Shown here: positions 13,610-40,391 of the stretch, piece by piece
Layout: the number at the start of each line of letters is the position of its first letter
Position numbering within the stretch: the first letter of the stretch is position 1
Assembly (NCBI GenBank): GCA_001275005.1
Contig: JWZX01003128.1
Coordinates: forward strand, 1 to 40,656
Direction: 5' to 3'
Length of the DNA stretch: 40,656 bases
Origin: Chrysochromulina tobinii
Taxonomy: Eukaryota
The notes under the pieces: generated by a model
The model's input: the letters and a program-made list of their open reading frames with translations, nothing else
Database searches by the model: none
What the model was told of the DNA's origin: nothing
Program-made: the position numbers and the translations under genes

Positions 13610-15223
13610 ATGTCACTCCCACCTGCGGCACCTGTGCCTCCATCGCCGCTGCCCGACAACCTCGCCACACGCAACTTCCCCTCCGCGGGCGCGGATGCCG
13701 AAGAGAGCTTTGACGCTGCCCTCGACGAGTACGTCAAGTTGAAGCCGCACTTGCAGCACGGATACGATCTCCTGACCGACAGGCTCGCCGCACTTTCGAC
13801 TGATGAGAAGAGGGCCGTGTACGACACATTTGCCGAGCTCAAAGCGCACAACTCACAGCATCCGCTCGGGGGTCCACAGCACCTCGAACAGAAGTTCTGC
13901 ACGTTGCTCTTCGGCGCGAGTCCATCGACCCAGGAGGCGGAGGCACTCGCCTTTGCGAAGGGTGCTTGCAAGGAGAGCACGCTCGCCCAGAGCGAAGAGG
14001 CGGCAAAGGAGCGAGTTCTCGACGCAGCCGCAAAGGAGGAGGCGCATGAGGAGGCGCTGTGCACCATCTGTTTCGACGTGCCGCGGAACGTGCGCTTCCG
14101 ACCATGCCATCACTCGACCATGTGCGACGGCTGCGTGCTGAAGTTGATCGCCCGGTCGGAAAACCGCAAGCTCATCTGCCTGACGTGCCGCACGCCGGTC
14201 GAGCGCCTGTGCCGCGAAGGTAGCGCTGACGTGGACGGCGCTGGGTCAGCAGTTACAGATTCAGCCGATGGCGCGCCGTTGAAGCCCGTACGCAAGCCAA
14301 CCTTCGAGCCGCCGCGTGAACTGCCGTTGAAGCCCATTCGCAGGCCAACGTTCGAGCCGCCGCAAGAATTGCCGTTGAAGCCAGTTCGCATGGCAACGTT
14401 TGATCAATCGTCAACCGTAGACGGCCTGCCCGTCGACGCGTTCATCACGTCGCTCAAGAGCATCCCGACCCTGCGCGAAGATGCAGAAAAGGCTGATGAG
14501 GCGTGGAATGTGGAAGTCGACCTCACCGAAGCGGTATGCGAAGACGACCTCTGATGACCTCTGATGACCTCTGATGACCACTGATGACCTCTGATGAGGC
14601 GTGGAACGTGGAAGTCGACCTCACCGAAGCGGTGTGCGAAGACGATCTCGAGGAGGCGAGATTTGGAGTGCCTGTGGAGTGCGACTGATGAGCCGTGATT
14701 GCCTCCCGATATGGCAGGTTGCGCGATGACGATCTTGAGGAGGCGAGAGCGCTGCGTGCCCGTGGCGCGTCCGTCACAAGCCCTAATGAGGAAGGCGAGC
14801 TGCCGTTGGTGCTCGCGTGCATAAATGGGAATCTCGAGATGGCGAGATGGCTCCGCTCCGAAGGCGCAGATGTGAGTGCCACTGACGAACCTCTGAGTGC
14901 CACTGACGAACCTCTGAGATGGCTCCGCACCGAAGACGCAGCTGTGAGCGCCACTGACGCCGAAGGCAACTGCCCCGCGCATGCTGCATGCATGTGCTCA
15001 CCACGGCGCTCGCTCTTCCCCACAGGTGAACGCCACCGATGCTGAAGGAAACTGCCCCGCGCATGCTGCATGCATGGCGGTTTCGTTGCCGTTATGCGAG
15101 TGGCTCAAGGCGGAAGGCGCGCGCTTTGACACAGTCGACTCATTCGGAGTCGGCTCGCTGCTCATGGCCATCGAGGGGCAATACGCTGATGAGGATGATG
15201 ATGATGACGACGAGGACGAGGAC

Positions 15224-15255
<32 letters not shown>

Positions 15256-18200
15256 GGACGAGGACGACGATGACGAGGACGACGACGAGGAGGACGTGGA
15301 CGAGAATGCACAGAATGGTGAAGGTATTCGGAACGAGGTAGCAGAGGACGATGAGGAGTTGCCTAATATGGACGATGATGCGATTGAGGCGAGGCGATTG
15401 AGGCGCGAGGCGCTGGCCGAGGCGACGGAGGCGAGGCGGGCTGCCCATGCGCGCCGTCTCGAGCGGCGCACCGCTCTCGAGGAATCCAAGCTTGCGCTCT
15501 GCCGCTGGCTCCTCGCCGAGGGAGTGCGTGTGAATGGTCGGGAGGGGGGTGTGAATGGTCAGGATGGGGGTGTGAATGATCAGGATGGGCAGTCTGCCAG
15601 ACAGCAGGAGAGCAACGGGAGCGTGGAGGGGCCTCGAGCGGTCAGCCGCTCGGGCCCTGACGACGGTTTGACGCCGTTGCACATGGCATGCGGGATGGGC
15701 TTTGTGCGCATGGCACAGGTGAGATGCGCACATGGCATCTGGGGGCATCTGATGGCATCTGAAGCACGTCGATGGCACGTGATGACATCTGATTGCGTCT
15801 GATTGCGTCTGAGTGCCTGCTCCTCGTGATGGCATCTGATTGCATATGATGGCATCTGATTGCATATGATTGCGTCTGAGTGCCTGCTCCTCGATCCAAC
15901 CCTGCCCCCAGCTGCTGCATGCAAGTGCTCACCACGGCGCCCGCTCTTCCCACAGCTGCTGCATGAGCATGGCGCTCCTCTCGATGCGATCGCGGAGGGC
16001 GATGGAGGCGCGACGCCCTTCCTAACAGCGTGTTCCAACGGCAAGCTCGAGATTCTGATCTGGCTCAAGCAGGCCGGCGCGAATCTCAAGGCGACGGGCG
16101 ACGAAGGGCAGGATGGTCTCTCGATTGCCGCGCGCGAAGGCTACCTCAAGGTGGTCAAGTGGCTGCATGAGGTGAGTGCCAATGAGTGCATACGAGTGCG
16201 GCTGATGGCGCTCTGATTACGCTCCGGTTGCGTCTCCGATTGCATGCAGGGGCTGATTGCGCTCTGATTACGCTCCGGTTGCGTCACCGATTGCATGCAG
16301 GAGGGAGGCCTCGATCTTGAGCTCACTGATTGCCGCTGATTGCATGCTGGAGGGAGGCCTCGATCTCGAGCTCACTGATTGCCGCTGATTGCATGCAGGA
16401 GGGAGGCCTCGATCTCGAGCTCACTGATTGCCGCTGATTGCATGCAGGAGGGAGGCCTCGATCTCGAGCACAAGGATGAGGACGGCCAGACTGCCGTGCA
16501 TGCGGCCGCTAGCGAGGGTGAAGTGAAGGTCCTCGAGTACTTGCATGCTCATGGCGCTTCCCTCACCCGCCCTGACGAGGACGGCGACACCCCCGTCCAC
16601 TTTGCATGCTCCAACGGTCAGCTGGAGGCGGCGAAGTGGCTGGTGGCGCACGGCGCGAGCCTGGTGGCGAGGAATGCGGCGGGGTACGCGCCACTGACTG
16701 CCTCTGATTGCCTCAGATTGCCACTGACTGCAATCAGAGGAATGCGGCGGGGTACGCGCCGGTCCATCTGATGCTCCTTGATGAGCACAGATGGCCTCGC
16801 TGATGACCTCTGATTGCCTCCCTCCTCAGGTACGCGCCGGTCCATCTGGTGCTCCTCGCGGATAGCGTCGAGAATGCCGCCTTGGATGGGATCGGCGACG
16901 ACGACGAGAGCGACGACGAAGACAGTGATGAGGATGATGACGACGATGAGGAGGAGGGGAGTGGCTCGGAGCAGCGCGCGCATCGTGCGCGCATGCGGCG
17001 CCTGACAGAGCTGATGCCTATGCTCGCATGGCTCTGTGAGCAGCCCGGTGTGAACGAGCTCACGTGCCGCCGCCAGCCCCCTCCTCCTCCTGGAGGCTGG
17101 CGGCTGATCCGCCGCCTGGCCGCTCTGGGCGAAGAGGCGCAGGCGGCTCGTTCACACCGGGGAGGCGATTCGTTCACACCGCGGGAGGCGCACGCGGCTC
17201 GTGATGCGGATGCGATGATGGCGGAGGTCACTCGCCTGGTCAGCTCCGCCATTGCCACCGCGGTAGCAGAGGGGGGAGAGGGGGAGGGGCTAGCCGACGC
17301 GATGGCCACGCTCAACATGAACAAGGGTACGCTCGAGGCGAGATTCGATGACGAGACTCTCGATGACGAAACTCTCAATACGCTCGAGGCGCAATTCGAT
17401 TAGCACTTGGAGCGCGCCGTGGCGCAAGGCAGGCTGAGTGAGGCCGAGGCCGATGCGATGACGGATCAGATCGCCTCCAAGCCTAACAACGCCGCGCGGT
17501 GCGAGGCGATGCGCCGAATCATAAAGGGGGAGATTGGGGAGATTGGGTTGAAGGGCGGGCAGGGGGGGGGCGAGGACGAGCCGAACCGGAGCGAGGGCGA
17601 CGCCCGGGATGACGACGGTGCCCGGCACGGCGCGCCCGAGCTTACGCTGCTCCAGTTTATGGAGGAGATTGACCGGGATCGTGCAGAGCATGCCAGCAAA
17701 GCGCCCGAGACGGCGCCCAATTGGTTCGGCCTCAACCGCCGCCGACCGCCGCCGCCGCCGCAGCAGCAGCAGCAGCAGCAGCAGCAGCCGCCGCAGCAGC
17801 CGCCGCCGCAGCCGCCGCAGCAGGCTGTGCTCGCCAAAGGCCCTTCGCCATTTGCGCGCCTTTTGCGTCTGGAGCCATCGGAGCGCGGGAAAGTCGTCGA
17901 CGCGCTCTCGTCACTGCCCACATGGGGTGGTGGCAACATAGAAGGTTTGACACTCGTCGCCGGCCGTTGGGAGCCGAGCTCGTTTAGCGGTGAGACGCTC
18001 GACGTGGCACTCTTCAACTCCGAGGTGCAATCGAAGACCTTGGTCGACTGATGACCTCTGATGATCCTTAATGACCCTTGATTGCGTCCCCCATCAGGTG
18101 CAATCGAAGACCTCGGTCGCGATGCTTCGCGTGCTCGATGATGACCTCCGATGATCCTTAATGACCCTTGATTGCATCCCCCATCAGGTGCAATCGAAGA

Positions 18201-19306
18201 CCTCGGTCGCGATGCTTCGCGTGCTCGATGATGACCTCTGATGATCCTTAATGACCCTTGATTGCGTCCCCCATCAGGTGCAATCGAAGACCTCGGTCGC
18301 GATGCTTCGCGTGCTCGAGGGCCACGCCGACGGCGTGTGCGCCGTGTCGAGCTGCACCGTCGGCGGGCGCGTGCTCGTGCTGAGCGGCTCGTATGACCAC
18401 ACGGTCAAGATGTGGGACGCGGCGGATGGAACGGAGCTCCGCGAGCTCGAGGGGCACACGGACGCTGTGCTTACCGTGGCGAGCTGCACCGTCGACGGGC
18501 GCGTGGTCGTGCTGAGCGGCTCGGTTGACCAGAAGGTGAAGATGTGGGACGCGGCGGACGGTACGGAGCTCCGCGTGTTCGAGGGGCACACGGACATCGT
18601 GTACGCCGTGACGAGCTGCACCGTCGACGGGCGCGTGGTCGTGCTCAGCGGCTCGGCCGACAAAACGGTGCGCATGTGGGACGCGGCGGACGGCAGGCAG
18701 CTTCGGGTGCTCGAGGGGCACACGGACGACGTCTTCGCCGTGACGAGCTGCACCGTAGAAGGGCGCGTGGTCGTGCTGAGCGGCTCGGAGGACCGCACGG
18801 TGCGAATGTGGGATGCGACGGACGGGACGGAGCTCAGAGTGTTCGAGGGGCACACGGACGCCGTATACTCCGTGGCGAGCTGCAACGTCGACGGGCGCGT
18901 GGTCGTGCTGAGCGGCTCGGTTGACAAGACGGTGCGTCTGTGGGACGCGGCGGACGGCAGGCAGCTTCGGGTGCTCGAGGGGCACACGGATGATGTGTGC
19001 GCCGTGACGAGCTGCTCTCTCGACGGGCGCGTGCTCGTGCTCAGTGCCTCGGACGACCGCACAGTACGCATGTGGGATGCGACGGAGGGGAGGTGTGAAG
19101 AGGGAGGTGTGAAGAGGGATGCGACGGATGGGACGGAGCTCAGCGTGCTCTGGGGACACCTACGCGACGTGAACGCCGTGGCGAGCTGCACCGTCGACGG
19201 GCGCACGCTCGTGCTAAGTGGTTCGTGGGACCACACGGTACGCATGTGGGACGTGGGACGCGCCGTCAACGTGGCGGCGGCGGCCGCCGTTGCCGCCGCC
19301 GAGTAG
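13610..19306 (+). CDS. Large multi-exon protein: RING finger, ankyrin repeats, acidic tracts, poly-P/Q and seven WD40 repeats
   Basis: RING CTIC...CHH...CDGC...CLTC; ankyrin motifs GELPLVLAC, GLTPLHMAC, GATPFLTAC, GQTAVHAA, GDTPVHFAC; GH...WD repeats. In-frame introns 14872-15025, 15719-15955, 16172-16447, 16684-16829 and 18025-18277. Less certain GC-donor introns ~14501-14598, 14656-14742 and 17338-17403. Could be two genes split at TAG 17401. Confidence 0.7.
14276..14400 (+). repeat. Coding 48-nt tandem repeat, about 2.6 copies (PLKPxRxPTFE)
   Basis: CCGTTGAAGCC recurs at 14276, 14324 and 14372. Confidence 0.9.
18050..18318 (+). repeat. Three near-identical 90-nt units, each comprising an intron 3' end plus the first ~40 nt of the next exon
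   Basis: CCCCATCAG|GTGCAATCGAAGACCTCGGTCGCGATGCTTCGCGTGCTCGA with acceptors at 18097, 18187 and 18277. Confidence 0.95.
18317..19262 (+). repeat. Seven highly similar WD40-coding repeats with 132-nt period
   Basis: xGH codon groups start at 18317, 18449, 18581, 18713, 18845, 18977 and 19151 (last interval is 132+42). Confidence 0.95.
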
Positions 19307-19800
19307 GGCGCGTGCTCGGCACAGCGCCGAAGGCGGCCGCCGAGTAGGGCGCGTGCTCGGCACAGCGCCTGGACACGGAGCCATGGCCGAGTGCGGCGGC
19401 GCAGACGATGGCCGAGCGTCAAGCCGAGCGTCAGCCGAGCGGGGGCTTGAGCTCGAGAGATTCCGCCCAGTGCTAAAAGACGCATATTCGCAGATGCAGA
19501 GACGAGAGAGCGGGCGTGCAGAGAGACTCATGGTTGACAGTTCGATGGTACCTACGGGCGTGTAGAATCGACATGTGGAAATCGAGCGTGGGGTTTGAGG
19601 CTGTCCGAGCGGAGACAATTGCGATATTGCGTTGCGTCCAATATCGGCGGTCGATTCCGCTCGGCGGTCACGATGCATTACGTTATATGGTATATCATTC
19701 GGACATCGGAGTGTATATCCGTACCGGAAGAGTGAAGTTGTAGACGGACGGTATACAAACGGAACCCGTGTCAAACGGAAATGACCTCACACACTCTCGT

Positions 19801-22397
19801 CTAGCTGCACAAGCGGCCGCAGCGTGGCTTGTACGCGTCGTACGCCTCCAAGGCCGCGGGGCGTACGTACTCGCTCACCACGGCGCTCTGGTCATCCGAA
19901 TCCGAGGCACGAGCGCCGTTTTGAGCAGCGGCTTGAGCGCCGTCACGAGCACCGCCCGCCTCGGGCGCTGTCACGGGCATGCCGACGAGGCAGTAGCGCC
20001 GCTCGTTGGCATGCAGGTGGACTTGGCAGTCCAACGGCCCGAGCAACGAGGTATAGTTGAGGATAGACGGGCCGAGGGCTCCCTTAATCACGCCCGCTCG
20101 GTGCCCCACAACGGTCGAGAGCAGCTGACGTGGCGTTGGTGCGTGCTCGTTGAAGACGGCGCACAGCGATCGCTCCCTGGCAATCAGTGGCAATCAGTGG
20201 CAATCAGTGGCAATCAGTGGCAATCAGTGGCAATCAGGCTCGTTGAAGACGGCGCACAGCGATCGCTCCCTGGCATGGGAGCACGAGCTCATGCCCCTTT
20301 CAAGACTGGCAATCAAGGGCAATCAAGGGAGATCAAGAGCAATCAAGGGCCTTCAAGGGCAATCAAGGGCAATCAAGGGAGATCGCACCTGGCATGGAGC
20401 ACGTGTGCACGTCCCTTCAAGACTGGGGTGATACGCGGCTTGCGACCGCCATCGCCGCTGCTTTTACTGCCGCCGCCGCCGCCGCCGTCGCCGCTGCTGC
20501 TGCTCACTATGTTTTGGAACGCGGCGCCATACGATGGATGGATCTTTCCAACTCGGAGGGAGCCATCGAGGCCCCTCGAGATGCGATCTCCCACCGAGAT
20601 GCGATCTCCCTTCGGCAGCTCGTCCAGCGCGAGCTTCTCGGCGAGATGGGCGCGCAGCTCGGCGAGGTGAAGTGTCTTCTGATCGTCGGCACCCACACCC
20701 TGCGGCCAGCAGAGGCATACAGCGGCCTTCAGCGGTCAGCTGTCGTCAGCAGTCAACTGTGGCAACCAGCGATCCTCCGAGCTCCTCCGAGCTCCTCCGA
20801 GCTCCTCCGAGCTCCTCCGAGCTCCTCCGAGCTCCTCCGAGCTCCTCCGAGCTCCTCCGAGACCCTTCTCCGAGCTCCTCCGAGCTCCTTCTCCGAGCTC
20901 CTTCTCCGAGCTCCTCCGAGCTCCTCCGAGACCCTTCTCCGAGCTCCTCCGAGCTCCTCCGAGCTCCTCCGAGCTCCTCCGAGCTCCTTCTCCGAGCTCC
21001 TCCGAGATCCTTCTCCGAGCTTCTCCGAGCTCCTCCTTCTCCAAGGCAATCACAGGGCACACCTGGCGCATCGAGAGCAGCAGCCAGTCGCGCATGAGCG
21101 CTGCGCTGGGCGCGGACCATCGCACAACCAAGTTGAAGTTGTGAGGGTACATCGTCTCCGTCAACACGTTCTGGGAGGCATGCGCGATATGCAAGCCCCA
21201 CAGCTGGCTACGAAGGGCGGCGTCGAGGAACTTCGACGCAGCACCCGGCGTGCAGCTCACCTGCCATCAGACGCAAGCAGAAGCCATCAGCAGCTGGATT
21301 GCGCTTGATTGCGATGGATTACTCTTGATCGCAGAGGCCATCAGCAGCTCGCCACGTTCGAGTCGAGCGCCCAGGTGAGTGCAATCAAGAGCAATCAAAC
21401 GCACTCCACTGCAATCAAGAGCAATCCATTGCAATCCATTGCAATCAAGCGCACTCCAGTGCAATCAAGAGCAATCCATGCAGCTCACCACGTTCGAGTC
21501 GAGCGCCCACGTGATATGATATGGAGATTGGGCGAGATAGTAGAGGCGCGTGAGCCACTGCCGAGGGACCTTGTCGCTCCGGTTCTGATCGTTCTCGCCC
21601 GCAAAGAGAAGGTCGGCGCGTGGCATGATGTGCGTCGTGAAGATGCGCCGATCGACCGTCTCATTGTTCGTGACGATAGCGATGGGCAAGGTGGGGTTGT
21701 GCTCGCGGAATGAGGCGGCAGCGTACTGCGCCTCGCGCACGAAGTGCTGCAGCGTCTTGCGCCCGCCGTACGCGAAGAGCAGCAGCCCGGCGCCCGACTT
21801 GGCCGACTCGCCCTCGACCGCCCACGACAGCGGTGTGACACGGCGAGGTCGGTGCACCGGGAGCGCCGTGTCGGGGTCTGTCACCTCGGCGCTGCTGCTG
21901 CGGAGGCTCTTGCGCATGGTTGTAATGATGGTACGCTGCGCGTCGATGATTTTTTGCTGCATCTCCACCACGGCCAAGCTGTGCCCCAGTGTCCGACGCT
22001 GTGCGTCCGCGGTCTCCAGCTGCTTCTGACGCGCAGTGATGCTCGAGGACAAGTTGCTCTCCATCGTGGGAAGCTCCTTTTGCAACTCCTCATCATCTGA
22101 GTCGAGATTGCGCAGCCAGCTCCGCAGCGCCGTTCTCGCACGCAAGACCTCCTCTCGCACAGCACCGCGCAATAGCACCATCGACGGCGTGTCTGCGGCC
22201 TCCACGGCGCCATCTCGCACATCGCCTCGTCGGCGGGCCGACGCCACAGCTGCCGCAATCGATTCACCGCTGTACGGGACGGCTGCGATGCGGGGCGGCA
22301 GACCACTCGAGTCCTGCAGCTGCGCGTTCATGAGCACGACGAACATCACGGCGACGCACAGCAGCGCGATGAAGGCTTTTCGCATCGTGTCCGTCAT
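19801..22397 (-). CDS. Type II membrane GT-A-fold glycosyltransferase-like protein; introns 21261-21488, 20700-21062, 20177-20388
   Basis: N-terminal TM and coiled-coil stem. SPYHITWALDSN resembles the SPF..TLFLDxD motif of nucleotide-diphospho-sugar transferases, followed by a DDQ motif. All three GT-AG introns restore frame. Confidence 0.65.
20773..21036 (-). repeat. Intronic 10-nt array (GCTCCTCCGA)n with CTT insertions
   Basis: About 260 nt of decamer-based repeat within intron 20700-21062. Confidence 0.95.
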
Positions 22398-22662: not shown

Positions 22663-24631
22663 GTGTTTCACAGCTCTTCGATCGTCGCGACGAAGACGGC
22701 CGAGGTGTTCTTTCTGACCCCGCACCTCATGTCGTTCGGCGCGTCTTCGAAGGACAAGCAATTGCAGGCAAACTTCGAAGCGGTGGTCGAGTTACTACGC
22801 GAAAGCGAGACCGAGCGTGAGAAGCTCAAGGCGGAGCTCAAGGCGATTCGCAAGGAGCAGGCGGAGGCCGAGAAGCGGTGGGCATCGGCGACCGATGCCT
22901 TCGAGGAGCAGCTGGCGGAGAGCGAGCAACGCGAGAGCGAGCGGCACGCCGCGCTCACAGTGGCGCTAAAGGAGGCGCAGCAGGCCGCGGCAGATTTCCA
23001 GGATCGTGCCGAAGGAGCCGAGGAGCAGCTCGTGGCCGAGGCGGCGCGCGCGTCAAACGCGGAGGATGAGTGCGCTCGCCTGTCGGCGGCCGTCGAGGCG
23101 CTCCAGCAGCAGCAGCAGAGCGCGATGGCGGCGGCCGTGGCGGACAAGGAGCGAGAGCGCGCGGCGCTCGAAACGGCGCTCAAAGAGCTTCGGGCGGAGC
23201 TGGCGACGGTGGCCGCCGCTGCGAAGGATGAGGCGGAGGCAGCAGCCGCACGTGAGCGTACACTGAGCGAGGAGCTTGAGACGGCGCGTCAGCAGGCGAA
23301 TGAGCTCGAGGCGAAGGCGACGCTGGCCAAGGCCTCGGTCGCCGACCGGGTCGCCGCGGCCGAGAAGGCCGAGAACAGCCTGCGCGACGAGATGCGAAAG
23401 ACTGTCGGGGTCGAGCGGCAGCGCGTAGCGGGCATGCTGTACAAGGAGGCGCTCCAGACCCACACTCTCGAGGAGCAGGCACGTTGATTGCCACTGATGA
23501 CCTGCCTTGCATGCAAGTGCTCACCACAGCGCGTTCGGCTCTCGAGGAGCAGGCGCGCCAGCTCGAGGAGCTCAACGCCGAGCTCGCCGACACGCGCGAG
23601 TCGTTGCGCGAGAGCCAGGAAGAGGTGGCCGAGGCCAAATCGCTCGCCGCCGAGCTGCTCACTGCGCTGCATGCAAGTGCTCACCACGACGCCCTCTCCT
23701 CTCCCCACAGGTGGCCGAGGCCAAATCGCTCGCCGCCGAGCTGCTCACTGCGCTGCATGCAAGTGCTCACCACGACGCCCTCTCCTCTCCCCACAGGTGG
23801 CCGAGGCCAAATCGCTCGCCGATCGACGAACGTCCGAGCTTGCACGCGTCCAGGTGATTGCATGCTGGCACGTGAATACATGCTGGCGCGTGAATGCATG
23901 CTGACCGAACGTCCGTGCTTGCACGCGTCCAGGTGCAGCTGACCGCGCTGCAAGACTCGCAGCATAAGAGCTTGCGTTCGGTCGAGCACCTCGACGACCA
24001 GGTGCGCATGCATGCATGCTGATTGCCCACCCCATTTGCATGCTGACTACCCCTCTGCGCGCCTCGACGACCAGCTCGCCGATGAGCAGCAGAGGCGCGA
24101 GCAGGCGGAGGAGCAGCTCAAGACGGTGCAGGTGACGGCGGAGGCTGACGAACCTGAAAGCCTCCCTCTTGGTGCCTCTGACGAACCTCTGAGTGCCTCT
24201 TGACGAACCTCCTGGTGCCTCTTGACGAACCTCGGAGTGCCTCTTGACGAACCTCCTGGTGCCTCTTGACGAACCTCGGAGTGCCGCGGGTGGCTTCTCT
24301 CTGATCTGAGAGCCTCCCTCATTGACGAACCTCTGAGTGCCTCCCTCATCAGGCGACGCTGAGCACGATCGAGAAGAAGCATGCAAGGGAGTTACGCATT
24401 GCCTCAGGCGCGAGCCGCCTCAAGACCACGGCGGCAGCGTGCCAGACGGAGAGGGGCCATCTGAACCCGGAGAAGGCGCTTCAGACCGACTGGTGCGCCG
24501 TGCACATGCCGCTGCCCTCTCCGAGCATGCATGTGCTCACTACGGCGCCCTCGCCTCCCCACAGGTGCGCCGTGCACATGCCGCTGCCCACGCTGCCGCA
24601 CGGTGGGTGCATCCTTCCCAAGATACCCTAG
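22663..24631 (+). CDS. Long coiled-coil protein, 5' exon unresolved; introns 23479-23552 (GC-AG), 23625-23796, 23854-23932, 24002-24074, 24132-24352, 24493-24564
   Basis: E/A/L/Q/R heptad-rich sequence. The splices give one continuous frame ending ...GCILPKIP-TAG. An acceptor GCGCAG at 22662 implies an upstream exon. Confidence 0.7.
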
Positions 24632-28210: not shown

Positions 28211-31002
28211 TCACGTCAACGGCGGCTCTGCGACAATGGTAGCCGCGCCTCGGACGACATCCGCATCAGCCACCTCCTTGCCCGAGCTCGAGCTCACGGT
28301 CATGCCGAGCTCAGCGCGGGTCGAGCAGTCGCCGCCGAGCCGGCCCATTTCGAGCTGGGCCTTGCTGCAATCGTACAGCCGGTGCGCTACCCGCATCTTT
28401 GGGCTCAGATCGGGCGGCTCGAGCAGCACCGTCTGCGGTGCGGGCGGTTCGAAGCGCTTCGCGGCGGAGGGGGGCAGCTCGGCAGGCGGCGCGGGCGGCT
28501 TGAGGCGCCGAGGGCGCCCAGTTCGGGGATCCAAGGTGGCGGCTTGCTCAAGGATGGCCGAGAGCATCAGAGCCCCTGCAGCACGCCGATGAGGGGTGTC
28601 ATCAAACGGTAATCAGAGGCAATCAGAGGGCGCGATCCCCTCACCTGGCACATGAACCACCACGGACGGGAGAGTCGACGTCGCTGCTTCGAGTCGCTCT
28701 ACGGGCCTGATGCCGAGCGCCGTCTCGCCAAGGGCCGCGAGGCTCTCCAGCCCGAAGACGCACGGCGGCTTGAGGTCACGCCCGGTTTCGTCACCCCCCG
28801 CCTGCAGCCGCACCGCGCCCGAGAGCAGCACGAACAAGCCGTCGGGGCGCGCACCCTCGTGATAGAAGGCATGGTACCGGTCGCGCCGCTGTAGCCGGCC
28901 GAGTCGAGAGAGGCGCACCTGAGGAGGGAGGCAATCAGCATGCACTCAGCACGCAATCAGCATGCACTCATCACGCAATCGTCATGCACTCAGCATGCAC
29001 TCAGCATGCACTCAGCATGCAGTCATCATGCCACCCCGATGCATTAGCATGCCGCGTACCAAGGTCTCGTCGGGCAGAAGGTCGAGCGCCTTACAGCCGC
29101 GCAGTGCCCGGGACGCCGCGTCAGCAAGTGGACAAATCCCCATATCGACGCCACGGCTCCCACCTGATGAGGGATGCAATCAACATGCACTCAGCACGCA
29201 ATCAGCATGCAATCCCCATATCGACGCCACGGCTCCCACCAGAGACGAAAGCGTCCGCAATGCGCCGCCCGAGCGAAGAAGGTGCACCGAGCTTGCGCGC
29301 CAGCAGAACTGCCTGTAGAGTCGCCTCCTCCTCTCGCTCACTCTCGCTGAGTACCTGATGAGGGAGGCAATGACGGGTGTCCTCAGCGGCAATCAGCGGC
29401 AATCAGCGGCAATCAGCGGCAATCAGAGGCAATCAGATGCAATCAGATGCAATCAGATGCAATCAGATGCAATCAGCTAAGTACCCGCTCCGTCGGGCGG
29501 CCGTAGAGCCGCCTACTGGCCATCACGCCGTGCAGAGGAGTGTCAGATCTCGCGAGATTTAGAGCTGCCTGGACCTCTCGCCGAGATCGGATCTGCGCCA
29601 GCCGCGCCTCTGCCACCTCGACCAGATTCGTCCGATTCGTCAGATTCGTCAGATTCGTACCCGGCGACACGTGCCCAAGCACCTCCGCCAGCATCGTCTC
29701 GGCCGCATCGAGCTCCGCCCTGCTCAGCCGCCCCTCTGCAAACGCGACAGCCGCCGCCGCCGCACGCCCCGAGGCCGCCCTCAAAGTGGCTTCGTCGGTT
29801 TCGTCAGTTTCGTCCACCGATCGCCCCGAGGCCGCCCTCAAACTGCTGTTCACAGGCACGCTGTTCACAGGCATGCTGTCCACAGTCCCACGCGGCTCCA
29901 CCGCCAGTGAACGGTGGTTCACAGCCAGTGAACGGTGGTTCACAGCCACACGCGGCTCGACTGCGGGCGAGCGCTCCGCCAGTCGCCAATCGGCGAGTGC
30001 TCGCCAATCGACGTCGGTGGCCACTGCATCCACGTCGGCATCTGCCTCTGCGTCCGCCTCCGCGTCTGCGTCTGCGTCCGCGTCTGCGTCTGCGTCTGCA
30101 TCCGCGTCCGTGTCGGTCAACACCTTGCTCGTGGCCGACGATCTCCTCTCGATCTCGATCTCCTCTGATCTCCTCTCTCGCGGAGCCCCACCCGTATTGC
30201 GTGCCACTGCCGCAGTGGCCGAAGCGGGCCGCCGCGACCCTGAGCCCTCCGCTCGCCGCTGGGCGCCCAACGAGGCCGACCACGGCCGCGCCGCCCCCCC
30301 CGAAGCGCGAGCAGGTCGCGCGGCGGCAGACTTGACTTGACTTGACTTGACTTGACTTGACTTGACTTGAACTGCGGCGGCGGACGGGGCTGCCGCTGCT
30401 GGCGCAGCACGATGCGGTGGCGGCGGAGGAACCACCCACGGTGCGGATGCGTTTGCGCCAGGGAACAAGACGGATTGCAAGAGGGTGGTCGGACGAATGG
30501 CCGGTGCTGACGCGACTCGACTAAGCGCCGCCACATCCATTGGCCCAGGTCCGGCATGCACAGCGTAGAGGGGGCTCTGGCCGGCCGCTTTGCCCCGTGA
30601 CACGTGTTGCGAGTGCACAAAGAGCCGACGAGCTGCGATGAGTGCGGCGGCGGACGGATGTGCACCAGGATCTGGCTTCCACAGGACTCTACCTTCAAAG
30701 TGCTCGAAGGTTCTGGTCGCGCGCAGCTTCTCCGTGTTCATGCTTTGTTGCCGATTTGCCGACCGCTCCGGTGGTGGCGTTGTCGCAGACTTGTGCGGCC
30801 TGCTGTCGAATGGAGCGATCGACAACAGAGAGCTGGCCGATTGGGCTGCGCGCGGATTCCCAGGCAATCTTGCGAGTCGTGGCTGCACGTGGGCATCCAT
30901 CCTTGGCGCCGTAAAAAATCTGCCGCCTTCACGAACCGCTTCATGGGGCCAGAGCGTGAGCGTGCGTTGTGTTGAACCAGCATCGAACAGCCCACAAGCC
31001 AA
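28211..31002 (-). CDS. Low-complexity protein with C-terminal cyclic-nucleotide-binding-like domain; introns 29355-29484, 29164-29239, 28919-29059, 28576-28644; start uncertain (ATG 30900)
   Basis: FYHEGARPDGLFVLLSGAVRL...VFGLESL...RLEAATST follows the cNMP beta-roll pattern with a degenerate phosphate-binding cassette. Four GT-AG introns keep frame. Confidence 0.65.
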
Positions 31003-31560
31003 GTCAAGTCTAGTCTACGCTTTTATCGCCGATTCTCAGAGTCGGCGCGACCGCGTAAACGCAGGAATCGATGAACCGTAATGCGCTCCCGCCAGCCGCC
31101 ACGCCCCCCGCGCGCGCCGCGCGGCGCTTTACATGCATGTTTACATGTAAACGTTACGCCGTGCTCGCCGCGGGTCGGACCTCGCTTCTACCTTCTTTGG
31201 GTTATCGTTTCATATTTGTGCACCCGGGCTACAGTTTCACACACACATGTCTAGAAGAGACTAGAGAGCGGAGAGGTAGACAATACCTCTCTCGTCGAGT
31301 CTGCACGGCGGGAGGTCCCTAAGTTCGTTCCTTCCAACGTAGCTCCAGTTGCGAGTTGCGCCATTCATGTACCGCTCAGGCCTCAGCTCGTCGCGTGTAC
31401 TCTTTACAGTTCGTCAGTGTCCGTTTGTATCTCGCTCCTTAATTTCGTAAGGAGGTCGTGCTCATTCGTCATTGCCCGCCATTTCTGAGACGTCACGCAG
31501 ATTGCGCACCTATTGACCTCGTGTCGTAACTCACCTGCCATGTCCTGTCATGCTGATGTC

Positions 31561-31742
31561 ATGAAGGGGCTTCATCGGTCTCGTTAATGAAGGGGCTTCA
31601 TCGGTCTCGTTAATGAAGGGGCTTCATCGGTCTCGTTGCAGACGGCCGCCACAGCCACATGCAGTGGCAGCCACATGCAGTGGCAGCCACATGCAGTGGC
31701 AGCCACATGCTGTGGCAGCCACATGCAGTGGCAGCCGCATGC
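31561..31742. repeat. 3'-flank repeats: 26-nt unit x3 (ATGAAGGGGCTTCATCGGTCTCGTTA) then 17-nt unit x5-6 (GCCACATGCAGTGGCA-like)
   Basis: Directly visible just downstream of the stop of the minus-strand gene at 31743. Confidence 0.9.
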
Positions 31743-32572
31743 CTACTCAGGAATCCCATGAGGTGCGCCCAGGAACAGAAGCTCATGGGCAGCCATCCGC
31801 GTGTCCCAGTCGAACGGCTTCTGGTCGGCGGGGGCGTGGGCGGTGGGCAGCGGCACGTGGGGGGATTGCGCTCGGTACGACGCGTCGCGTGGTGAGCTGG
31901 CGGTCCCGAGCGGCGTGTTGCTGTGGCTGGACGCGTTCGTGGTCTCACTGGTCGCGGTGCGTGAGAGGGGACGCTCGACTGAGCACGACGCGAGCACCAC
32001 CTCGGCGTCCTCGTCCCCATCCAGAGATGAGGTGTCGACCTGCCAAATCAGGGAGATGTCGTCCTCATCGCGGCGCCCGAGACGGCGCTGCTGCGGCGGT
32101 CGCGGCGGCGGCTGCCGATCCCGCGGTTTCCTGGCAGACGCCCTTGCGCATGCAATCAGCGCCGTATCGGGCGCCTCATCCGTCGCGATCATCTCAAGGC
32201 TGCTGGTGGACTCACACTCTTCGCGTTCACACTCGCTCACGTCGTAGTCGGCGAAAGTCTCGATACGCGAGCCCATGTTCAACCCCATGGCTTCCGCGTG
32301 CTTACGCAGCCACTTGCGAACCTGCACCGGCTCGACGCCCGGATGCGCACGCGCAGTCGGCTTGATTCGATTCGACTCGGGCAGACGGAGGGCGAACTGG
32401 ACGACCCGCATTTTGAACTGGGCCGTGTACACCTTGCGGGAGCGCGGGATCTGCACAACAGGGCGGCGTGCGAGCGGTCAGTGTCGTACGACGCCACGTG
32501 CGGGGCGGCGTTCCCATATGCTTGCTGGAGGTGGCTCGGGACGCTCAAGGGGGATACTGTTCCGCAGTCCAT
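31743..32572 (-). CDS. Brinker-type HTH DNA-binding domain protein; main exon 31743-32450, short 5' exon probably from ATG 32572
   Basis: RSRKVYTAQFKMRVV...PTARAHPGVEPVQVRKWLRK resembles BrkDBD. Acceptor TTGTGCAG at 32451; donor unresolved. Confidence 0.6.
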
Positions 32573-33172
32573 GGCGGGTCGGGACGCGCAGGGCTTTGCG
32601 CACCGACTCCGCACGCGCGCTCGAAGCAGTCTGTCGGACGGCCCGTTGGCCCTTGGTCACAGCGCCTGACGCCCGCGAGGTGGTTGCAGGCATGACGCCG
32701 ACGGCCGATTGAACCGGGAGATCCGAGACCCGGCCAATGGTCACGAAGCCGCGGCCCCTCCCTGTTGCCGTCGGCCGACGGCGTTTCCGAGTGTAACTTT
32801 CGACATCCGCCCCTCTAGAAAATCTCCGTGTGAGGTGCGACCTCCGCGATCCCAACCCGAAAGTGAAGACGAAGGGTGCCCACGTTTCCTCGTGACCTCG
32901 AGCGCGCGCCATACGCTCGTGCCAGACGTAGGTGAGCTGGGACTCCAGAGACCCGTGTGCTGTGCCCATCCGAATTATAACCCGCACCCTCGTCAACACG
33001 TCACACCACGGACGAGAAACAAAAGACAACCTACATGTATGCATACAAGAACTTGACTAGACTTTTTGTCTCGACGCGTCTAACTTGACTTGACTGGACT
33101 TGACCTCGTGACGAAGCGCTCGGTGACGCCGAACGAATCAATGCCAAAGATCATCACGACGACCGCCCTACC

Positions 33173-33970
33173 ATGGTACCCTCTCCCATGAAGGTATTGC
33201 TGTTGCTCCTCGCCAGACCCTCGTTGGCGGTCAGTCCTGGGAAGGTGCATCTGATCGATACGTACCCGCGCAATCAGCCGCACAATTACCTCTTCCGAGG
33301 AAACAACCCCGTGGTCGATGGCACCTTCAACTTGACCGCCCTCGTCGATGTGATGCGGCAAAAGGCTGCAGCAGAGTGCGGCGTGACGTTGCCTGCAGCG
33401 TTTCGCTTCGTTGACCTCAGCTTGGAGAACCCAACCGACCCTGGCTACTTCCAGGAGAAGGCCTTCTGGGACGCCAATCCTCGTGCTGGCGAGCTCGACT
33501 CCTACCCGACGCTCGGCTCGCTCCAAGACGTCAAGCACCCCGTAGGCGATGCGGATGAGCTCGTGAAGAGCGGCGACTGGGCGATCCAAGGGCACGCCGA
33601 CTACCTGCCAGAGCGCCTCGCGGCGGTACACGCCAGCCTCACCAACACATCAGGGCCTCCGACCATTTTCTACGCGCACTGCAACGCCGGCTGCGACCGC
33701 ACCGGAGAGTTTTTCGGCGCGTACGCGATGTCGTACCTAGGTTACAATGTGACGACCGCGATGGGCGAGGCCTGCAAGCAGTGCGGCCGCTGCCCCAACT
33801 ATTACGCCACGAACTCGATCGGGTGGTGGTGCCTCACGCTCGAGGCTCAAGGGCGTACCGACGTCGGTCCGTGCATGGACTTTGCGAGCTGTAAGCCTTT
33901 GGGCGACTGCACAGCTCACAACGCGACGCCGCTCGAGGACGACTGCCCGCGACTGGGGCTCGGTGTGTAG
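33173..33970 (+). CDS. Signal-peptide-bearing, Cys-rich protein of the PTP/dual-specificity phosphatase superfamily
   Basis: Signal MKVLLLLLARPSLA, LFRG motif, P-loop HCNAGCDRTG (CX5R), Cys-rich C-terminus. Confidence 0.8.
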   Translation: MVPSPMKVLLLLLARPSLAVSPGKVHLIDTYPRNQPHNYLFRGNNPVVDGTFNLTALVDVMRQKAAAECGVTLPAAFRFVDLSLENPTDPGYFQEKAFWDANPRAGELDSYPTLGSLQDVKHPVGDADELVKSGDWAIQGHADYLPERLAAVHASLTNTSGPPTIFYAHCNAGCDRTGEFFGAYAMSYLGYNVTTAMGEACKQCGRCPNYYATNSIGWWCLTLEAQGRTDVGPCMDFASCKPLGDCTAHNATPLEDDCPRLGLGV

Positions 33971-34364
33971 GTTCTAGTTTGGTGTAGATCGATGTGCGCC
34001 GCAGGGGGCAGGGCGCGCTGCAGTGCCGGCCGGTACACAGGGGTAGATTTAAGGATCCTGAGCGGGCGCGGCGCCCCGCGCTGAGTCTGTGGGCACGCTT
34101 CGTACAGGTGTAGCTCTATCACACGCCTCACACAACTTTCAATATATGTCGTTCCAAATTTTGTGCACAGCTTCCACAGCACATATCCGCAAGAGACTTG
34201 CCACAAGGCTGTCATGAAATTTCGTCGAAATGGTAGGTTGCATGATGGTGCATACGTGTATCAACGGGTGGGGGACGGGGCACCGGCGGCTCGAAAAAAG
34301 GGCCTTCACACAGTCGCCTTCACACAGCGTCTCGAGCCTTCCTGCACGACCACAAAATCGGGCC

Positions 34365-36382
34365 ATGGTCGTGCACGACAAACTCTCGAGCGCGCTGCGC
34401 ACCTTTGCGACTGCCAACCCGTTCTCCACGCTCGAGGAGAGCGGCCGCGTGCTCTCCACGCTGCTCAGCAACCTGGCGCGTGAGGACACGCCCAAGTTTC
34501 GCCGCGTCAACCTGACGAATGCCAAGATCAAGGCCGCCGTGCTCGGCGCGGCGGGCGCCCGCGAGGTGCTCATCGCCGCGGGCTTTTCGGCTGTCGAGGA
34601 CGGTTCGGCGCTCGAGATGACCGGCGACGGCGCCTCGGCGCGCGCCGCCGCCGCCTCCGCTGCGCTCGACGAGGCGCTCGTCGCCGCCGGTGGCCCGTTC
34701 GCGCTTCGGCAGCGCCTGGCGCACGAGGCGCGCTGCTGCTGTGGCGGCGCCCCCGGCGAGGCTGGCACGGTGCTCACCGGCGGCATGGACAACCTGGTCA
34801 AGGTCTGGTCAACCGCGCTGCCGCTGCAGGGCGCCGCAGAGCCCTTGCGAGTCTTCGTCGCGCATGAGAATGCGCGCGGCGCGGCGGGCGTGCTGGCGCT
34901 GTGCTCGCTGCCAGGCGGCGCGGTCGCCTCGGCGGGCCGCGACGGCAAGGTCGTGGTGTGGGATGCCTCCGACGTGGCGGGAGGCGGCGGCGCGGGCGGC
35001 GCAGTGCCGCTCGCAATCCTGATCACTCACGGAGAGCCGCCAGGAAAGGAAGTCTCGAACAAGCAGGTGGTGACTTGCCTGGCGGGAGAAGGCGGAGATG
35101 CGGGCGGCGCGCTGTGCTCCGGCGGCTGGGATCAGACCGTCCGGGTCTGGCATCCGCTCCCCGGAGGAGCAACCCCGACCCCGCGGCGCTGCTCCATGAG
35201 CAAGCCGTGCTCGCCATTTGCGTGCTGCCGGACGGTCGACTGCTCAGCGGCGCGGGCGATGGCACCGTTGGCGTGTGGCGCCGGCCCGTCTCGAGCGCCG
35301 TCTCGAGCGCCGGTTTCGTCAAGGAGGCGGAGTGCAGGGTGCAGACGGTCGTCAGAGGCCTTGCGCCGTACGCCGGCGGCTTCGCGCAGGCACGCTGATG
35401 ACCTCTGATGACCACTGATTACCACTGATGACCTCTGATGACCACTGATGACCTCTGATTACCGCCGTACGCCGACGGCTTCGCGCAGGTCGGCAACGAC
35501 GGCGTCCTCCGTCTCTGGGCGCTCGACACGGCGCTCGTAGCTGGCGCGCCGCGTCTCGCGTGCAGGTGCGCTGATGACCTCTGATGACCACTGATGACCT
35601 ATGATGACCTATGATGACCTCTAATGACCACTGATGACCATTGATGACCACTGATGACCACTGATGACCTCTAATGTGCAGCACGCCCTCGGTCGGCTGC
35701 TACCTCTTCGCCGTCGTCAACTGCACGCCCGACGGCGCCGCCCGATACGGCGCGCCCGAGCAGCTCGCCGTCGGCGGTGATGATGGCTGCGTGCGCATCT
35801 GGCGCGCTGCCGGCCAGGGCGCGGCGATGCCCAATACGGCGCCGGGCGCGATGCCGACGGCCCTCGAGTGCATGCAGACCGTGCGCGTCCCGGGCGAGGT
35901 CTTCGGGCTATGCCTCCTATCCGACGGCGACCTGATCGCGGCGTGCGATGCCGCCGGAGCCGTCGTCTTCACGCGGGCTCCCGGCCGCGCCGCACCACCG
36001 GCCGCCCAAAAATCACTCGCCACCGAGGCGGACGCCTTCGCGACGCCCGCGACGAGCGCCGCCAGCGCCGCTGGCGCCGCTGGCGCCGCTGGTGCCGCTG
36101 GCGGCGGCAACTTGGCGCGTCCGAAACAGATGGCCGCGGATGGCAAGCAATATGACTTCGTCTTTCCGGTCGAGATGGGTGGCGGCAAGGCACAGATCTT
36201 TTGGAACGTCGGCGACGACATACGGACCGTCGCCGCACAGGTACGCTGATTACCACTGATCACCTCTGATACCACACTGATTACCCTCCGGACCGGCCCC
36301 GCACAGTTTGCTCTGCGGAACGGCGTCGGTCTCGATGAGCTCTCCTCCATTGAAGAGTTCATGCGCATGGCGGCTGGCGGCA

Positions 36383-36421
<39 letters not shown>

Positions 36422-36591
36422 TGCCCATGGAGCAGGCTCCGCCGCCGCCCGCGCCCCCGCTCGGCGCGGCTGAGATGCAATCTCGCGTGCAGCAGCTGGT
36501 GACCATGGGGTTCGATGCACAGCGGTCACTGGCGGCCCTGCAGAAGGCGGGTGGGGACGTGGAGGTGGCACTCGGCGTGCTGCTCGGCTGA
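34365..36591 (+). CDS. PUB-WD40-PFU-UBA protein (PLAA/Doa1-related); introns 35390-35488 (GC-AG), 35566-35681, 36241-36306; frameshift near 35180
   Basis: PUB LLSNL...PKFRRVNLTN...VLIAAGF; WD motifs TGGMDNLVKVW, SGGWDQTVRVW; PFU-like DGKQYDFVFPVE...WN...AAQF; UBA QLVTMGF...AL...GGDVEVAL. Confidence 0.75.
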
Positions 36592-36700
36592 GCGCGTGAC
36601 CGCGCAACGTGGAAGGCGATGGTTCAGTGTTGGGAGTCAATTGCGGATTCGTAGTGCACAGTACGGAGAGTTCGCTCATGACGACGCGGGAAATAAATAA

Positions 36701-37201
36701 ATGAGATTCAGCTTGTGGGCGCTGCTCGCGCTCGACGTCCACGCGTTCGGTTCGAGCTGCCAACTGTCGACAGCGAGCTCCCGAAGCAGGCGAGCCGCGA
36801 CGAGGCTCTCGGATTCAGCAGCTCCACCTGGGTCGTATGTAGGCTTCGTGCAATCTAAGCTCAGGGCGGGTATTCCAGGGGTCGTGCATTGCCACGTGCG
36901 CGATTGCAGCGACGGCCACACGGTCACGGGCTTTTCGGATGGCAGCAAGCGGGCGCTGGCCAAGGATGGCATACAGCTCGAGGTGCTCATCGTCGCGAGC
37001 GCCTTTGAAGGTGTGAGCACGATGAAGAGGCACCGGACCGTCCACGCGTGCCTCGACGAGGAGTTCAAGCGCAACGCCATACACTCAATCGAGCTCAAGA
37101 CGCTTACCGCCGAGCAGTGGGAGGACATGGGGGGACCTCCCACCTACGCGGCGATGGCGGCCAGCCAAAGGCAAGCGGCCTTCAAGATTGAGACATCTTG
37201 A
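36701..37201 (+). CDS. bolA: BolA family protein with signal peptide and probable plastid transit peptide
   Basis: IVASAFEGVSTMKRHRTVH...IHSIELKTLTAEQW is the BolA signature. N-terminus MRFSLWALLALDVHA-F followed by an S/R-rich stretch. Confidence 0.85.
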   Translation: MRFSLWALLALDVHAFGSSCQLSTASSRSRRAATRLSDSAAPPGSYVGFVQSKLRAGIPGVVHCHVRDCSDGHTVTGFSDGSKRALAKDGIQLEVLIVASAFEGVSTMKRHRTVHACLDEEFKRNAIHSIELKTLTAEQWEDMGGPPTYAAMAASQRQAAFKIETS

Positions 37202-38000
37202 CGTCTAGATGCCCCTGTGGGCGCCACAGAGCCCTGCTGTATCTCTTTGGCCGCGTGTGCTGGGGCGCAGGGACCGCGCGCGAGTCGCGCGCATTCATGG
37301 TAGCGGAGGTTTATAGTTTTGTCGTGTTGCGCGCGGCTAGGTTACGTTACTCGACTCAGGGTGCCGGGAGACGGCCGGGCAAACTTCCGGGCACGGGTTC
37401 GACGATTAAAAAGTTGAGAACCCCGCTCCCCGGGGGACGGTAGCGCCCGTGAACGGTCGTGAGCGAGCCGGACCGGACGGTACGCCGGCTCTACGCAACG
37501 CGAACACGGCGTGTCGCTATCGGCTTCTGTATTGAGTATTCGTTTTGATTATTTCTTGAATTGACTCCTGTGTCACGCGGGGGCGTCTACGGGTCTTACG
37601 GTCCGCGGGCGCTCGGGACGGGATTTACGGGAAGCGCTCCCGGCAATTGGGTATTGGCTCCCGCCCTCCCGGGCGCCCGGACCACAGGGCGCCCCCCTCG
37701 ACCCGGGCAGGAGGTAGAATTGCAATACCATCATGCCCCATGGTAGCTGATCCTGATCGGTTTGCCCCAATCTATGCCACGCGTCACAAATGAATGCATG
37801 AGATCCCCGATGCCGGCTGCTGCATGCTGCGCCAGAGCTTTTCCCGTGGTGCGCAATCCAGTTCCGCCAAGAGTTCGCCCATCACAGCGCCCGCCCATCA
37901 CAGCTCCCACCCATCACAGCGCCAGCCCACCACAGCGCCTGCCCACCACGGCGCTCGTCCATCACACGCCCTAGTGGCGTTTAGGTAGGGGGCTCCCTAA

Positions 38001-40391
38001 TTAGGTAGGGGGCTTCCACTCAGTGTCGGCGAAGGGCGCCGTCCCGGCAGGGATGCGCATCTGCGCGTCAAAGAGTCGCAGAGCGGCCCTCCACTTGCCC
38101 TCGCGGTTGGTCGTACCCTGCGGCGTCGCGAGATCGACCGTCTCCACCTTAATCATCCGAGATCATACGAGATCATACGAGATCATACGAGATCATCCGA
38201 GGCAATCAGGGCACACCTTCGGCGTCGCGAGATCGACCGTCTCCACCTTGATCATCGTCTCGTTGTTGTCGGCGGCCAGCTTGTTGAGAGTGATGTACCT
38301 GAAGAAGGAGGCAGCGTCAGATGCGATCAGCCGCCGTCATCAGCAGTCGTCACTAGCAGAATGTGTGGTCATCAGATGTACCCGTCGGTGCCATAGCCCT
38401 CCATCGGAGCGAGGTGTAGCGTGCCGCCAAAGTACTTTGCGTATAGTCGCGCGAGCGGCAGCCCCAGCCCCACCTGAGATGATGAGATGCGATGAGATGC
38501 AATTAGATACGATGAGATGCGATGAGATGCGATGAGATGCGGCAGCCCCAGCCCTACCTTCCAATTCGCACCGCCGACCTTAATCATCCGAGAACATCCG
38601 AGATAATCCGAGATCATCCGAGGCAATCAGGGCACACCTTCCAATTCGCATCGCCCACCGAGACCGGAAGGACTTTTCGGTCAGTCGCCACCTTCCAATT
38701 ACGGTCCGTGTGCATGCTGCGATAGGACCAGATGTCCGCAAGACCCGAGCGCGGCATTCCGCCAGCCTGGTCCGCCACTTTGATGGTCACATTCGCGTCG
38801 CTCACCTGAGGATGGAGGCCAACCGATCCCAAATTAGGTCATCATCGGGCGAGATCAGGCGAGATCCACCGCTCACCGCCACGATGACGCGGATGGGGAC
38901 CGATTCCAAATCGACAGTGCGCCCAGAGCCAGATTGTGACGAAACGTGACGAAGCGTCGCTTTGGAGGCGTTCGAGAGCAGCTCGCCCACTACGAAGCGC
39001 AGGTGGCTCGGCACGTACCTGATGGCGGACGCAATCAGATGCCATCAGAGCTCATCAGAGCTCATCAGAGCTCATCGGAGCTCATCGGAGCTCATCAGAG
39101 CTCATCAAGCGCAGGCGAATCGGTGCTTACGTGAAGCTATGCGAAGGGTCGCCGTGGACGTGAATGGGAGGCAATCAAGGAGTTTCGTCAAGATGCGTAC
39201 GTGAAGCTATGCGAAGGGTCGCCGTGAACATGAATGGGAGGCGCGGCCCCAAACTGGGCACGAGTCCATTCACTCATCTCGTCGGCGAGCTCCTTGCACA
39301 CGGCCACAGGCGAGCACGCGAGCTCGATGATACCAGCGTACCTGATGAAGGAGGCCATCAGGGAGGCCATCAGAGGGCATCAAAGGCCATCCATGGCCAT
39401 CAGAGCTCATCAGAGCTCATCAGAGCTCATCAGAGGCCATCAGAGCTCATCAGAGGCCATCGGCGCACCCCTCCCTTGGCTGCCGCGCGCCCAAATTAGG
39501 GAGGCAATCAGAGCTCATCAGAGGCCATCGGCGCACCCCTCCCGCGGCTGCCGCGCGCCCAAAAAATGCTCCGTCAGAAACCGGAGACCCAATCTGGCCG
39601 AGAAGATCGCGTCCAGATGCCGGTCGATCGCGAGCTTCAGGGCCGCGTCGAGCCCCGACGAGCCGTTGGCCTCTGATGAGCTTTGATTAAGTGACTCCTC
39701 CACACGGAGGTGTGAAGGAGACTCCTCGGTGTGAAGCGACGTGAGCGCCTCGGCGAACGTGCGTCGCGTCTCGCCCTCCTACTCCGCAACACCGCAGGAG
39801 CTCCACCAATCAGTGTGGCCATCGGACGCAATCAGGCGCAATCAAGGGGAAGACCTCCACCTGCTCCTCAAAGCGCAGGCGCAAGCGGCCCGCGAACTCC
39901 AGCTCGTCGCCCGCGTTGGTCATGCGCGGCTGCTCAAGGAGAAAGAGGAGGCGCTGCCAGTAGGCCGTCGTGAGCAGCTGCACCGCGGGCTGGCGTGCCA
40001 GCTCCGAGGGCACCGCCAGGAGCAGAGAGAGGATGTGCGCTCTGCGTGCCAGGAGCTCACGCCGCACAAACTTTGCGTTGAGCAGCGCTTGCTCCGCCGA
40101 GCGAGCCTGCATCTCGGCCGCACGTTGCAGTGTGCGGATGGACACCGGTGTGGGCGGCAGGAGCTCTGTGAGCCTCGCGATGGTCTCGCGACACGGCGGT
40201 GCATGGCGCATCGCAAGCAGCTGGCTCGTGAGCTCGGGCAGCGCCAAAGTGCTGCTGCTGCCGCCGCTGCTGCTGCCGAGCTGCCGCACGGCGGCACGGG
40301 CCGAGCGATGGCAGTCGAGACTGCTGCTGCCGAGCTGTGCTACACGGGCCGTACGATGGGGAGCCAAGAGCAAGGTGCGCACGGTAGCCAT
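38001..40391 (-). CDS. PDK: Mitochondrial pyruvate dehydrogenase kinase / BCKD-kinase family protein; introns 39779-39860, 39342-39536, 39019-39200, 38806-38876, 38474-38637 (possibly split by microexon 38558-38578), 38299-38381, 38118-38216
   Basis: Spliced product contains [26 protein letters not shown]...[15 protein letters not shown] and [16 protein letters not shown]...MEGYGTD. R/S/A-rich presequence. Confidence 0.85.

Follow-up and report, generated by a model that had tools for sequence, protein, structure and literature searches.

Copies of flanking exons within introns of a Chrysochromulina tobinii contig, and a probable source of their silent differences

Why do introns carry stretches that read like the neighboring exon, and why do so many of the differences between the two fall at silent codon positions? 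The question is raised by contig JWZX01003128.1 of Chrysochromulina tobinii (assembly GCA_001275005.1), of which we analyzed positions 1 to 40,656 (40,656 nucleotides, hereafter the window). The window has a GC content of ~62%, and its genes are interrupted by short GT/GC-AG introns packed with 10–11-nt repeats. The original prediction held that the intronic "echoes" differ from exons mainly at synonymous positions and that a neutrally decaying copy should not. It attributed the pattern to templating from another allele, to a period of coding through alternative splicing, or to an assembly that concatenates haplotypes. Our analysis suggests that the echoes are short flanking-exon copies, likely noncoding, and that the ~45% of differences that are silent probably result from decay anywhere in the copy combined with mainly silent change in the exon.

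The modeled set consists of 32 introns over 10 gene pieces, with introns named by gene letter and number. RNA joints are available for two of these (A1 and A2), and the other 30 were placed by model. Genes A to F each have one open frame in the spliced models. Pfam matches on the exon open reading frames support the frames of gene A (RING, ankyrin, and WD40), gene E (PUB and WD40), and gene F (BCDHK_Adom3). Genes B and C have no Pfam match, and the frames of B, C, and D were taken from open reading frames alone. Two modeled introns have GC donors, C1 (23479) and E1 (35390).

To find copies, we aligned 120 nt of the spliced junction with each intron and set the threshold higher than the 99th percentile for 866 cross-gene controls. 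Copies of flanking exon, 13–79 nt in length, were found in 20 of the 32 introns; the other 12 had no copy above threshold, and short copies in those 12 were left out of the count. The copies account for 13–108 nt of introns that are 66–276 nt long, and every copy-bearing intron also contains nonexonic filler. The copy supplies the donor in, for example, C2, C6, D2, and A6, and the acceptor in C1, C3, C4, E1, E3, and F7. Whole units are repeated in tandem at A4, A6, and C2. The copies are listed here, with the basis of each assignment given last.

14534..14717, plus strand: intron A1, short 5' copy (14534–14551) and junction-spanning copy (14591–14661; 2 silent, 2 replacement); RNA joint in X19, alignment
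14872..15025, plus strand: intron A2, junction-spanning copy (14916–14994; 4 silent, 4 replacement); RNA joints in X14 and X15, alignment, strain variants
16172..16447, plus strand: intron A4, acceptor and downstream exon start in three tandem copies (1 silent difference kept); modeled
16684..16829, plus strand: intron A5, junction-spanning copy (16737–16778; 1 replacement); modeled
18025..18277, plus strand: intron A6, downstream exon start copied three times in 90-nt tandem units (1 replacement); modeled
20177..20388, minus strand: intron B3, copy (20238–20309) with 2 indels and 2 silent and 3 replacement sites; modeled
21261..21488, minus strand: intron B1, junction-spanning copy (21344–21378; 1 silent, 1 replacement); modeled
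23479..24564, plus strand: gene C introns C1–C6, copies identical to exon in C1, C2, and C6, and with 1 replacement each in C3 (23906–23932) and C4 (24059–24074); modeled
29164..29239, minus strand: intron D2, 29-nt copy of downstream exon start, no differences; modeled
35390..35488, plus strand: intron E1 (GC donor), 3' copy (35463–35488; GGC/GAC); alignment, and one RNA contig ends at 35390
36241..36306, plus strand: intron E3, 3' copy (36289–36306; 2 replacements); modeled
38118..38216, minus strand: intron F7, 40-nt 3' copy (38118–38157; ATC/ATT, AAG/CAG); alignment, allele L004, P0016
38474..38637, minus strand: intron F5, junction-spanning copy (38539–38579; 2 silent, 1 replacement), with 5' filler in common with F7; alignment
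39019..39200, minus strand: intron F3, copy (39107–39172) with 2 silent differences in its upstream part and a decayed downstream part (a stop-making change, 3 replacement codons); alignment, strain variants
39342..39536, minus strand: intron F2, copy of exon end and donor (39463–39495) with an adjacent GC/AA change silent in both codons; alignment

RNA contigs link 14533 to 14718 (X19) and 14871 to 15026 (X14 and X15), skipping the A1 and A2 copies. The first joint implies that 14591–14661 is one junction-spanning copy inside intron A1. RNA contigs over 28600–40450 gave no usable splice joints, as repeats dominated the matches. All 13 silent differences listed in the original prediction are present (14493/14591, 14641/14728, 14944/15026, 39201/39131, 39540/39470, and 38250/38151), and their frames hold. 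The pairing of 14493 with 14591 as exon and copy stands for AAT/AAC only: the RNA joint makes 14534–14717 one intron, so that GTA/GTG and GAC/GAT compare intron with intron. The true exon–copy differences at A1 are AAT/AAC and CTT/CTC, which are silent, and CGC/TGC and GAT/GAA, which are replacements that the earlier list did not contain. The replacements that it did report, at 14916–14948, 35463, and 23906, lie within the copies of A2, E1, and C3.

A uniform scan of the 32 modeled introns yielded 45 differences, 19 of them silent (42%). Three replacements were dropped as artifacts, two at A4 (gap-forced or at an alignment end) and one in the F2 donor copy, leaving 42 differences, 19 silent (45%) and 23 replacement. 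Counted by codon the silent share is 16/39, and by event 15/38. The adjacent GC/AA change in F2 may be a single event; GC to AA belongs to a tandem mutation class known in humans (PMC4158752). Tabulation by codon position, as the original prediction had proposed, gave 6, 16, and 20 differences at positions 1, 2, and 3 over the window's modeled introns, with the third position above one-third (p 0.038). Decay of the copy alone would yield 25–31% silent differences, which the observed share exceeds by site (p 0.003–0.04) and marginally by event (p 0.03–0.18). A moderate excess over copy-only decay is thus real by site and marginal by event, whereas the word "mainly" overstates it, as 19 of 42 are silent and the earlier list was selective; a silent share of 75% was rejected (p 4e-5).

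The premise that a neutral intronic copy would not favor third positions does not hold, since a comparison of exon with copy sums changes in both lineages. With copy decay plus silent exon drift, 36–43% of differences are expected to be silent at an omega of 0.2, and the observed share does not exceed this (p 0.13–0.45); omega is assumed, the expectation spans 32–48% over omega 0–0.4, and the sample is small. The ratio of replacement to silent divergence (pN/pS) is 0.40, as against 0.5–0.6 expected. In 9 of 17 silent GC/AT differences, the exon holds A/T and the copy G/C, as compared with 21% predicted if the copy alone had mutated (p 0.004), and therefore many changes took place on the exon side. 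The silent share shows no heterogeneity among copies (permutation p 0.91). Clustering of silent changes in tracts was considered and rejected, as like changes are not clustered (p 0.76).

Strain variants provide a view of the changes on the copy side. The population sample consists of gene calls that read through introns, compared at the protein level, where each cluster is represented by at most 15 listed members (a part of the larger clusters); single-contig calls may contain errors. For A2, 23 of 34 listed members show both exon and copy. The exon end is invariant among these, whereas the copy has three nested states, GAD (4 members), GAA (8), and DAA (11). The A2 replacements are stepwise decay in the copy under a fixed exon. 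Further replacements occur in the A2 copy among the listed members, one of which is frameshifted. At A1, 14 of 15 listed exons are identical, and replacements occur in two of three members with a copy. At F5, the copy of P0016 has the D of the exon, making the G of the window a copy-side change.

Several observations weigh against so simple an account. Over the whole A2 copy, variable residues number 6 of 26 as against 6 of 50 in the exon, which is not a significant difference (p 0.18). Removal of the 8 splice-signal differences leaves 18 of 34 silent (53%; p 0.03–0.17 against the two-lineage expectation). At F7, the exon of another allele, L004, which has the same intron, equals the window's copy at both sites of difference (ATC/ATT and AAG/CAG). 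Two of the three exon differences between the window and L004 fall within the 40 copied bases of ~290 (p ~0.05, by hand calculation). The copy variant at E1 (D) is exonic in one of eight members (P0067). Lastly, the upstream F3 copy seems young, yet it has two neighboring silent differences and no replacements. Taken together with the tally, the silent excess appears to be mostly ordinary two-lineage evolution, with the allele match at F7 keeping exchange in play.

The F7 match is also where the idea that the echo was templated from another allele finds support, as the L004 exon agrees with the copy at 2/2 sites, although an exon change after copying or conversion from copy to exon would give the same picture. 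P0016 has the copy residue (K/Q) in its exon and passes directly from one exon to the next with no intron F7, which is either exact presence/absence of the intron or a collapsed repeat. The L004 copy itself has one private silent change. A reading of the F7 ATT as mere filler was rejected, since the L004 exon has ATT. Outgroup searches with gene F gave no matches among longer proteins, and otherwise one close relative and nine weak, unrelated-looking matches; because these gave nothing usable, K/Q and ATC/ATT are unpolarized.

In its general form, this explanation takes copy and exon from different alleles, joined by unequal crossing-over or homolog repair in an occasional diploid phase, such that the differences are standing polymorphism filtered by selection. 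C. tobin has been reported to be haploid and to have meiosis genes (PMC4580454), and the 9 of 17 in the direction test point to exon-side or allelic changes. We nevertheless consider it unlikely, since 23 of the 42 differences are replacements and those of A2 and F5 arose in the copy. In addition, the F3 copy has the window's own S rather than the T of five of eight members, and silent divergence between exon and copy (0.10) is greater than that between the exons of the window and L004 (2 silent in ~290 nt, for this one allele).

Exchange between exon and copy, by slippage or gene conversion, would write copy variants into exons now and then, such that the harmful ones would be purged and the copy would come under indirect selection; contraction between copy and exon would also remove the intron exactly. 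The whole-unit tandem expansions at A4, A6, and C2 are in keeping with this, as are the exonic copy variants of P0067 and L004 and the apparently contracted forms: P0016 lacking F7, and P0028 and P0042 (2 of 23), in which the A2 copy continues directly into the last exon. However, the A2 copy freely segregates for replacements and for a frameshift, the tally requires no extra selection, and the contracted forms are single-contig gene calls that may be assembly collapses of 27–40-nt repeats. We judge exchange rather improbable as the general explanation.

It is very improbable that the copies stayed coding for a time by means of alternative splice sites. Several copies do have their own donor or acceptor, and the frame of intron A2 stays open across a 21-nt repeat (2 to 6 units among strains) up to the intron's last element, with P0028 and P0042 reading through. 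However, the RNA joints of three runs leave the copies out (at an RNA depth of ~3–5, such that rare isoforms are possible), and a second donor at F3 or A1 would bring in an in-frame stop. Lasting coding use of the copies finds no support, since they carry a stop-making change, indels, and replacements that accumulate stepwise from strain to strain; together with the low-depth RNA joints that skip A1 and A2, these changes set the copies apart from mutually exclusive duplicated exons.

Concatenation of two haplotypes by the assembly has next to no chance of being correct and is rejected, because single-depth contigs free of single-nucleotide polymorphisms bridge copy and exon. Two DNA sequencing runs gave contigs of 459–3673 nt with an even depth of 34–51 and no alternative letters; a 455-nt contig (depth 36.7) spans 14569–15024, with the A1 copy, exon 2, and the A2 copy on one molecule, and a 301-nt record spans the F3 copy and exon. 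Three other assemblies equal the window at 99.99–100% over the copies that they cover; these are probably of the same strain and thus assembly-independent rather than strain-independent. Other strains hold the same introns and copies. The window does have two single-base errors that each mimic a frameshift, an extra base at 14719 (DNA run X12) and a missing C after 35178 (all four runs). The cultured strain contains no second haplotype, and any other allele would be one encountered in an earlier mating.

We return to decay of noncoding copies and to how these might arise. In all modeled introns, the filler consists of CTRAY motifs, which resemble branch points, in tandem arrays. Such motifs occur at 23.9 per kb in introns, as compared with 2.1 in exons and 2.1 on the antisense strand of introns, making them ~11 times denser on the sense strand only. 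Introns F5 (38580–38637) and F7 (38158–38216) of the same gene share a 55-nt filler, which in sequence looks like intron copying within a gene. A scan with this filler found no loci in viral contigs and four in metagenome contigs, all of gene F, which makes the filler gene-local; the scan yielded one new allele. We propose that repeated local duplication, by slippage or break repair, would insert the branch-point-like 10–11-nt repeats, and that duplication along with filler insertion would keep creating or enlarging introns. Where a second duplication spans a donor already in place, it could produce a junction-spanning copy with no need for complementary DNA (cDNA). A cDNA origin was rejected as a necessity for such copies, as members of the F3 cluster show that the second half of the copy is the old intron start; judged by the translated intron start, the upstream F3 copy appears to be absent from five of eight members. 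The copy would afterwards decay while the exon drifts, giving ~40% silent differences and preserving an older exon state in the copy, and sporadic exchange, whether of copy with exon or among alleles, probably contributes.

Presence and absence of introns among strains extends to gene E. Near 35069, after codons for N-K-Q, 7 of 15 listed relatives stop or enter repeat filler, four of these after 11 residues copied from the exon stretch that follows. This is likely an extra intron with a 5' copy, present in seven and absent in seven of the 15 listed members, and absent from the window. The direction, gain or loss, is unpolarized here and at F7 in P0016.

A separate observation concerns a ~40-nt 3' intron element that ends in the acceptor and is common to several genes (14990–15025, 15915–15955, 23668–23710, 23754–23796, and 24525–24564). 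Near 14990–15025 it occurs at 10–19 times single-copy depth in DNA reads, and the recurrent element is a candidate mobile acceptor element.

The copies resemble three known routes of intron gain, each in part. As in tandem-duplication intron gain (PMC4974935, PMC3443670), a duplicated exon segment in the intron supplies a splice site, and duplication of junctions also occurs; direct duplicates of the adjacent exon do so here in the donor and acceptor cases named above. The window's copies differ in that branch-point-motif filler lies between them, they are 13–79 nt long, they are present in 20 of 32 introns, sometimes more than once in the same intron, and an AGGT core is not required. The original form of that model, in which duplicated exon between two AGGT sites makes up the entire intron, does not describe them, as filler is found in every copy-bearing intron. 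New introns of Daphnia pulex with flanking direct repeats have been attributed to staggered double-strand-break repair (PMC4202315). There, too, the exon end reappears where the intron finishes, later events account for internal repeats, and strains differ in presence or absence, but the exon-shared repeats are 4–12 bp, whereas here they reach 79 nt and are codon-readable, with fillers common to several genes. Introners produce target-site duplications of 4 bp in Chrysochromulina sp. (PMC9860276) and of 3–8-nt classes in Polarella and Symbiodinium (bioRxiv 10.1101/2020.10.14.339549). Like Introners, the window's introns have one splice site in the inserted part and the other from duplicated exon, with related fillers in several genes. 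Unlike them, the duplication is long and varies per intron (13–79 nt, rather than short and class-specific at 3–9 bp; PMC9860276). Introner families consist of introns that are alike over their full length, and curation of Introners leaves out likeness through simple repeats (PMC12130899), the kind that mostly links the introns here. Within the window, 25 intron pairs score at least 50 after copy masking, mostly through microsatellite filler, over 23–92% of the shorter intron. Terminal inverted repeats, a feature of some Introner families, are absent: one of 32 introns has 7 of 8 complementary bases near its ends, and that one is copy-free. A literature search, which covered mainly papers free of subscription, listed no study that describes such copies, or a bias in their codons, for the introns of haptophytes.

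The genes with Pfam support, and the piece that follows gene A, are as follows.

13610..17403, plus strand: gene A, RING finger and ankyrin repeat protein, 5 modeled introns (open spliced frame, Pfam)
17404–19306, plus strand: WD40 part after the in-frame stop of gene A, same or separate gene (Pfam)
34365..36591, plus strand: gene E, PUB and WD40 (and weak PFU) protein (open spliced frame, Pfam)
38001..40391, minus strand: gene F, pyruvate/branched-chain ketoacid dehydrogenase kinase-like, 7 modeled introns (open spliced frame, PF10436)

The in-frame TAG at 17401–17403, which separates the ankyrin from the WD40 part, adjoins a 22-nt direct repeat (17328/17379) and reflects a stop, an unrecognized intron, or two genes. 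The protein cluster of gene A exon 1 includes P0100, whose source label is Chrysochromulina parva (Haptophyta), and this places the host in Chrysochromulina. Positions 40580–40656 on the minus strand resemble what we take to be the end of an alpha-tubulin C-terminal tail.

When changes in both lineages are taken into account, the silent-site bias by itself is unremarkable. What the copies offer lies in a length sufficient for codons to be read, such that the exon has a dated fossil of itself in each intron, and in the variation of introns and copies among wild strains. Few source sequences are known for intron gain (PMC4974935); here it would become testable within one species from what source, when, and in which direction introns are gained or lost. 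A further proposal, which we regard as doubtful, is that the copy serves as an allele reservoir in freshwater Chrysochromulina, with frequent conversion or slippage writing variants into the protein, indirect selection keeping the copy partly codon-faithful, and the intron being gained and lost exactly. If it is true that copy variants return to exons, the intron would supply protein variation, and if the reservoir proposal is true, intron turnover would be observable within one species.

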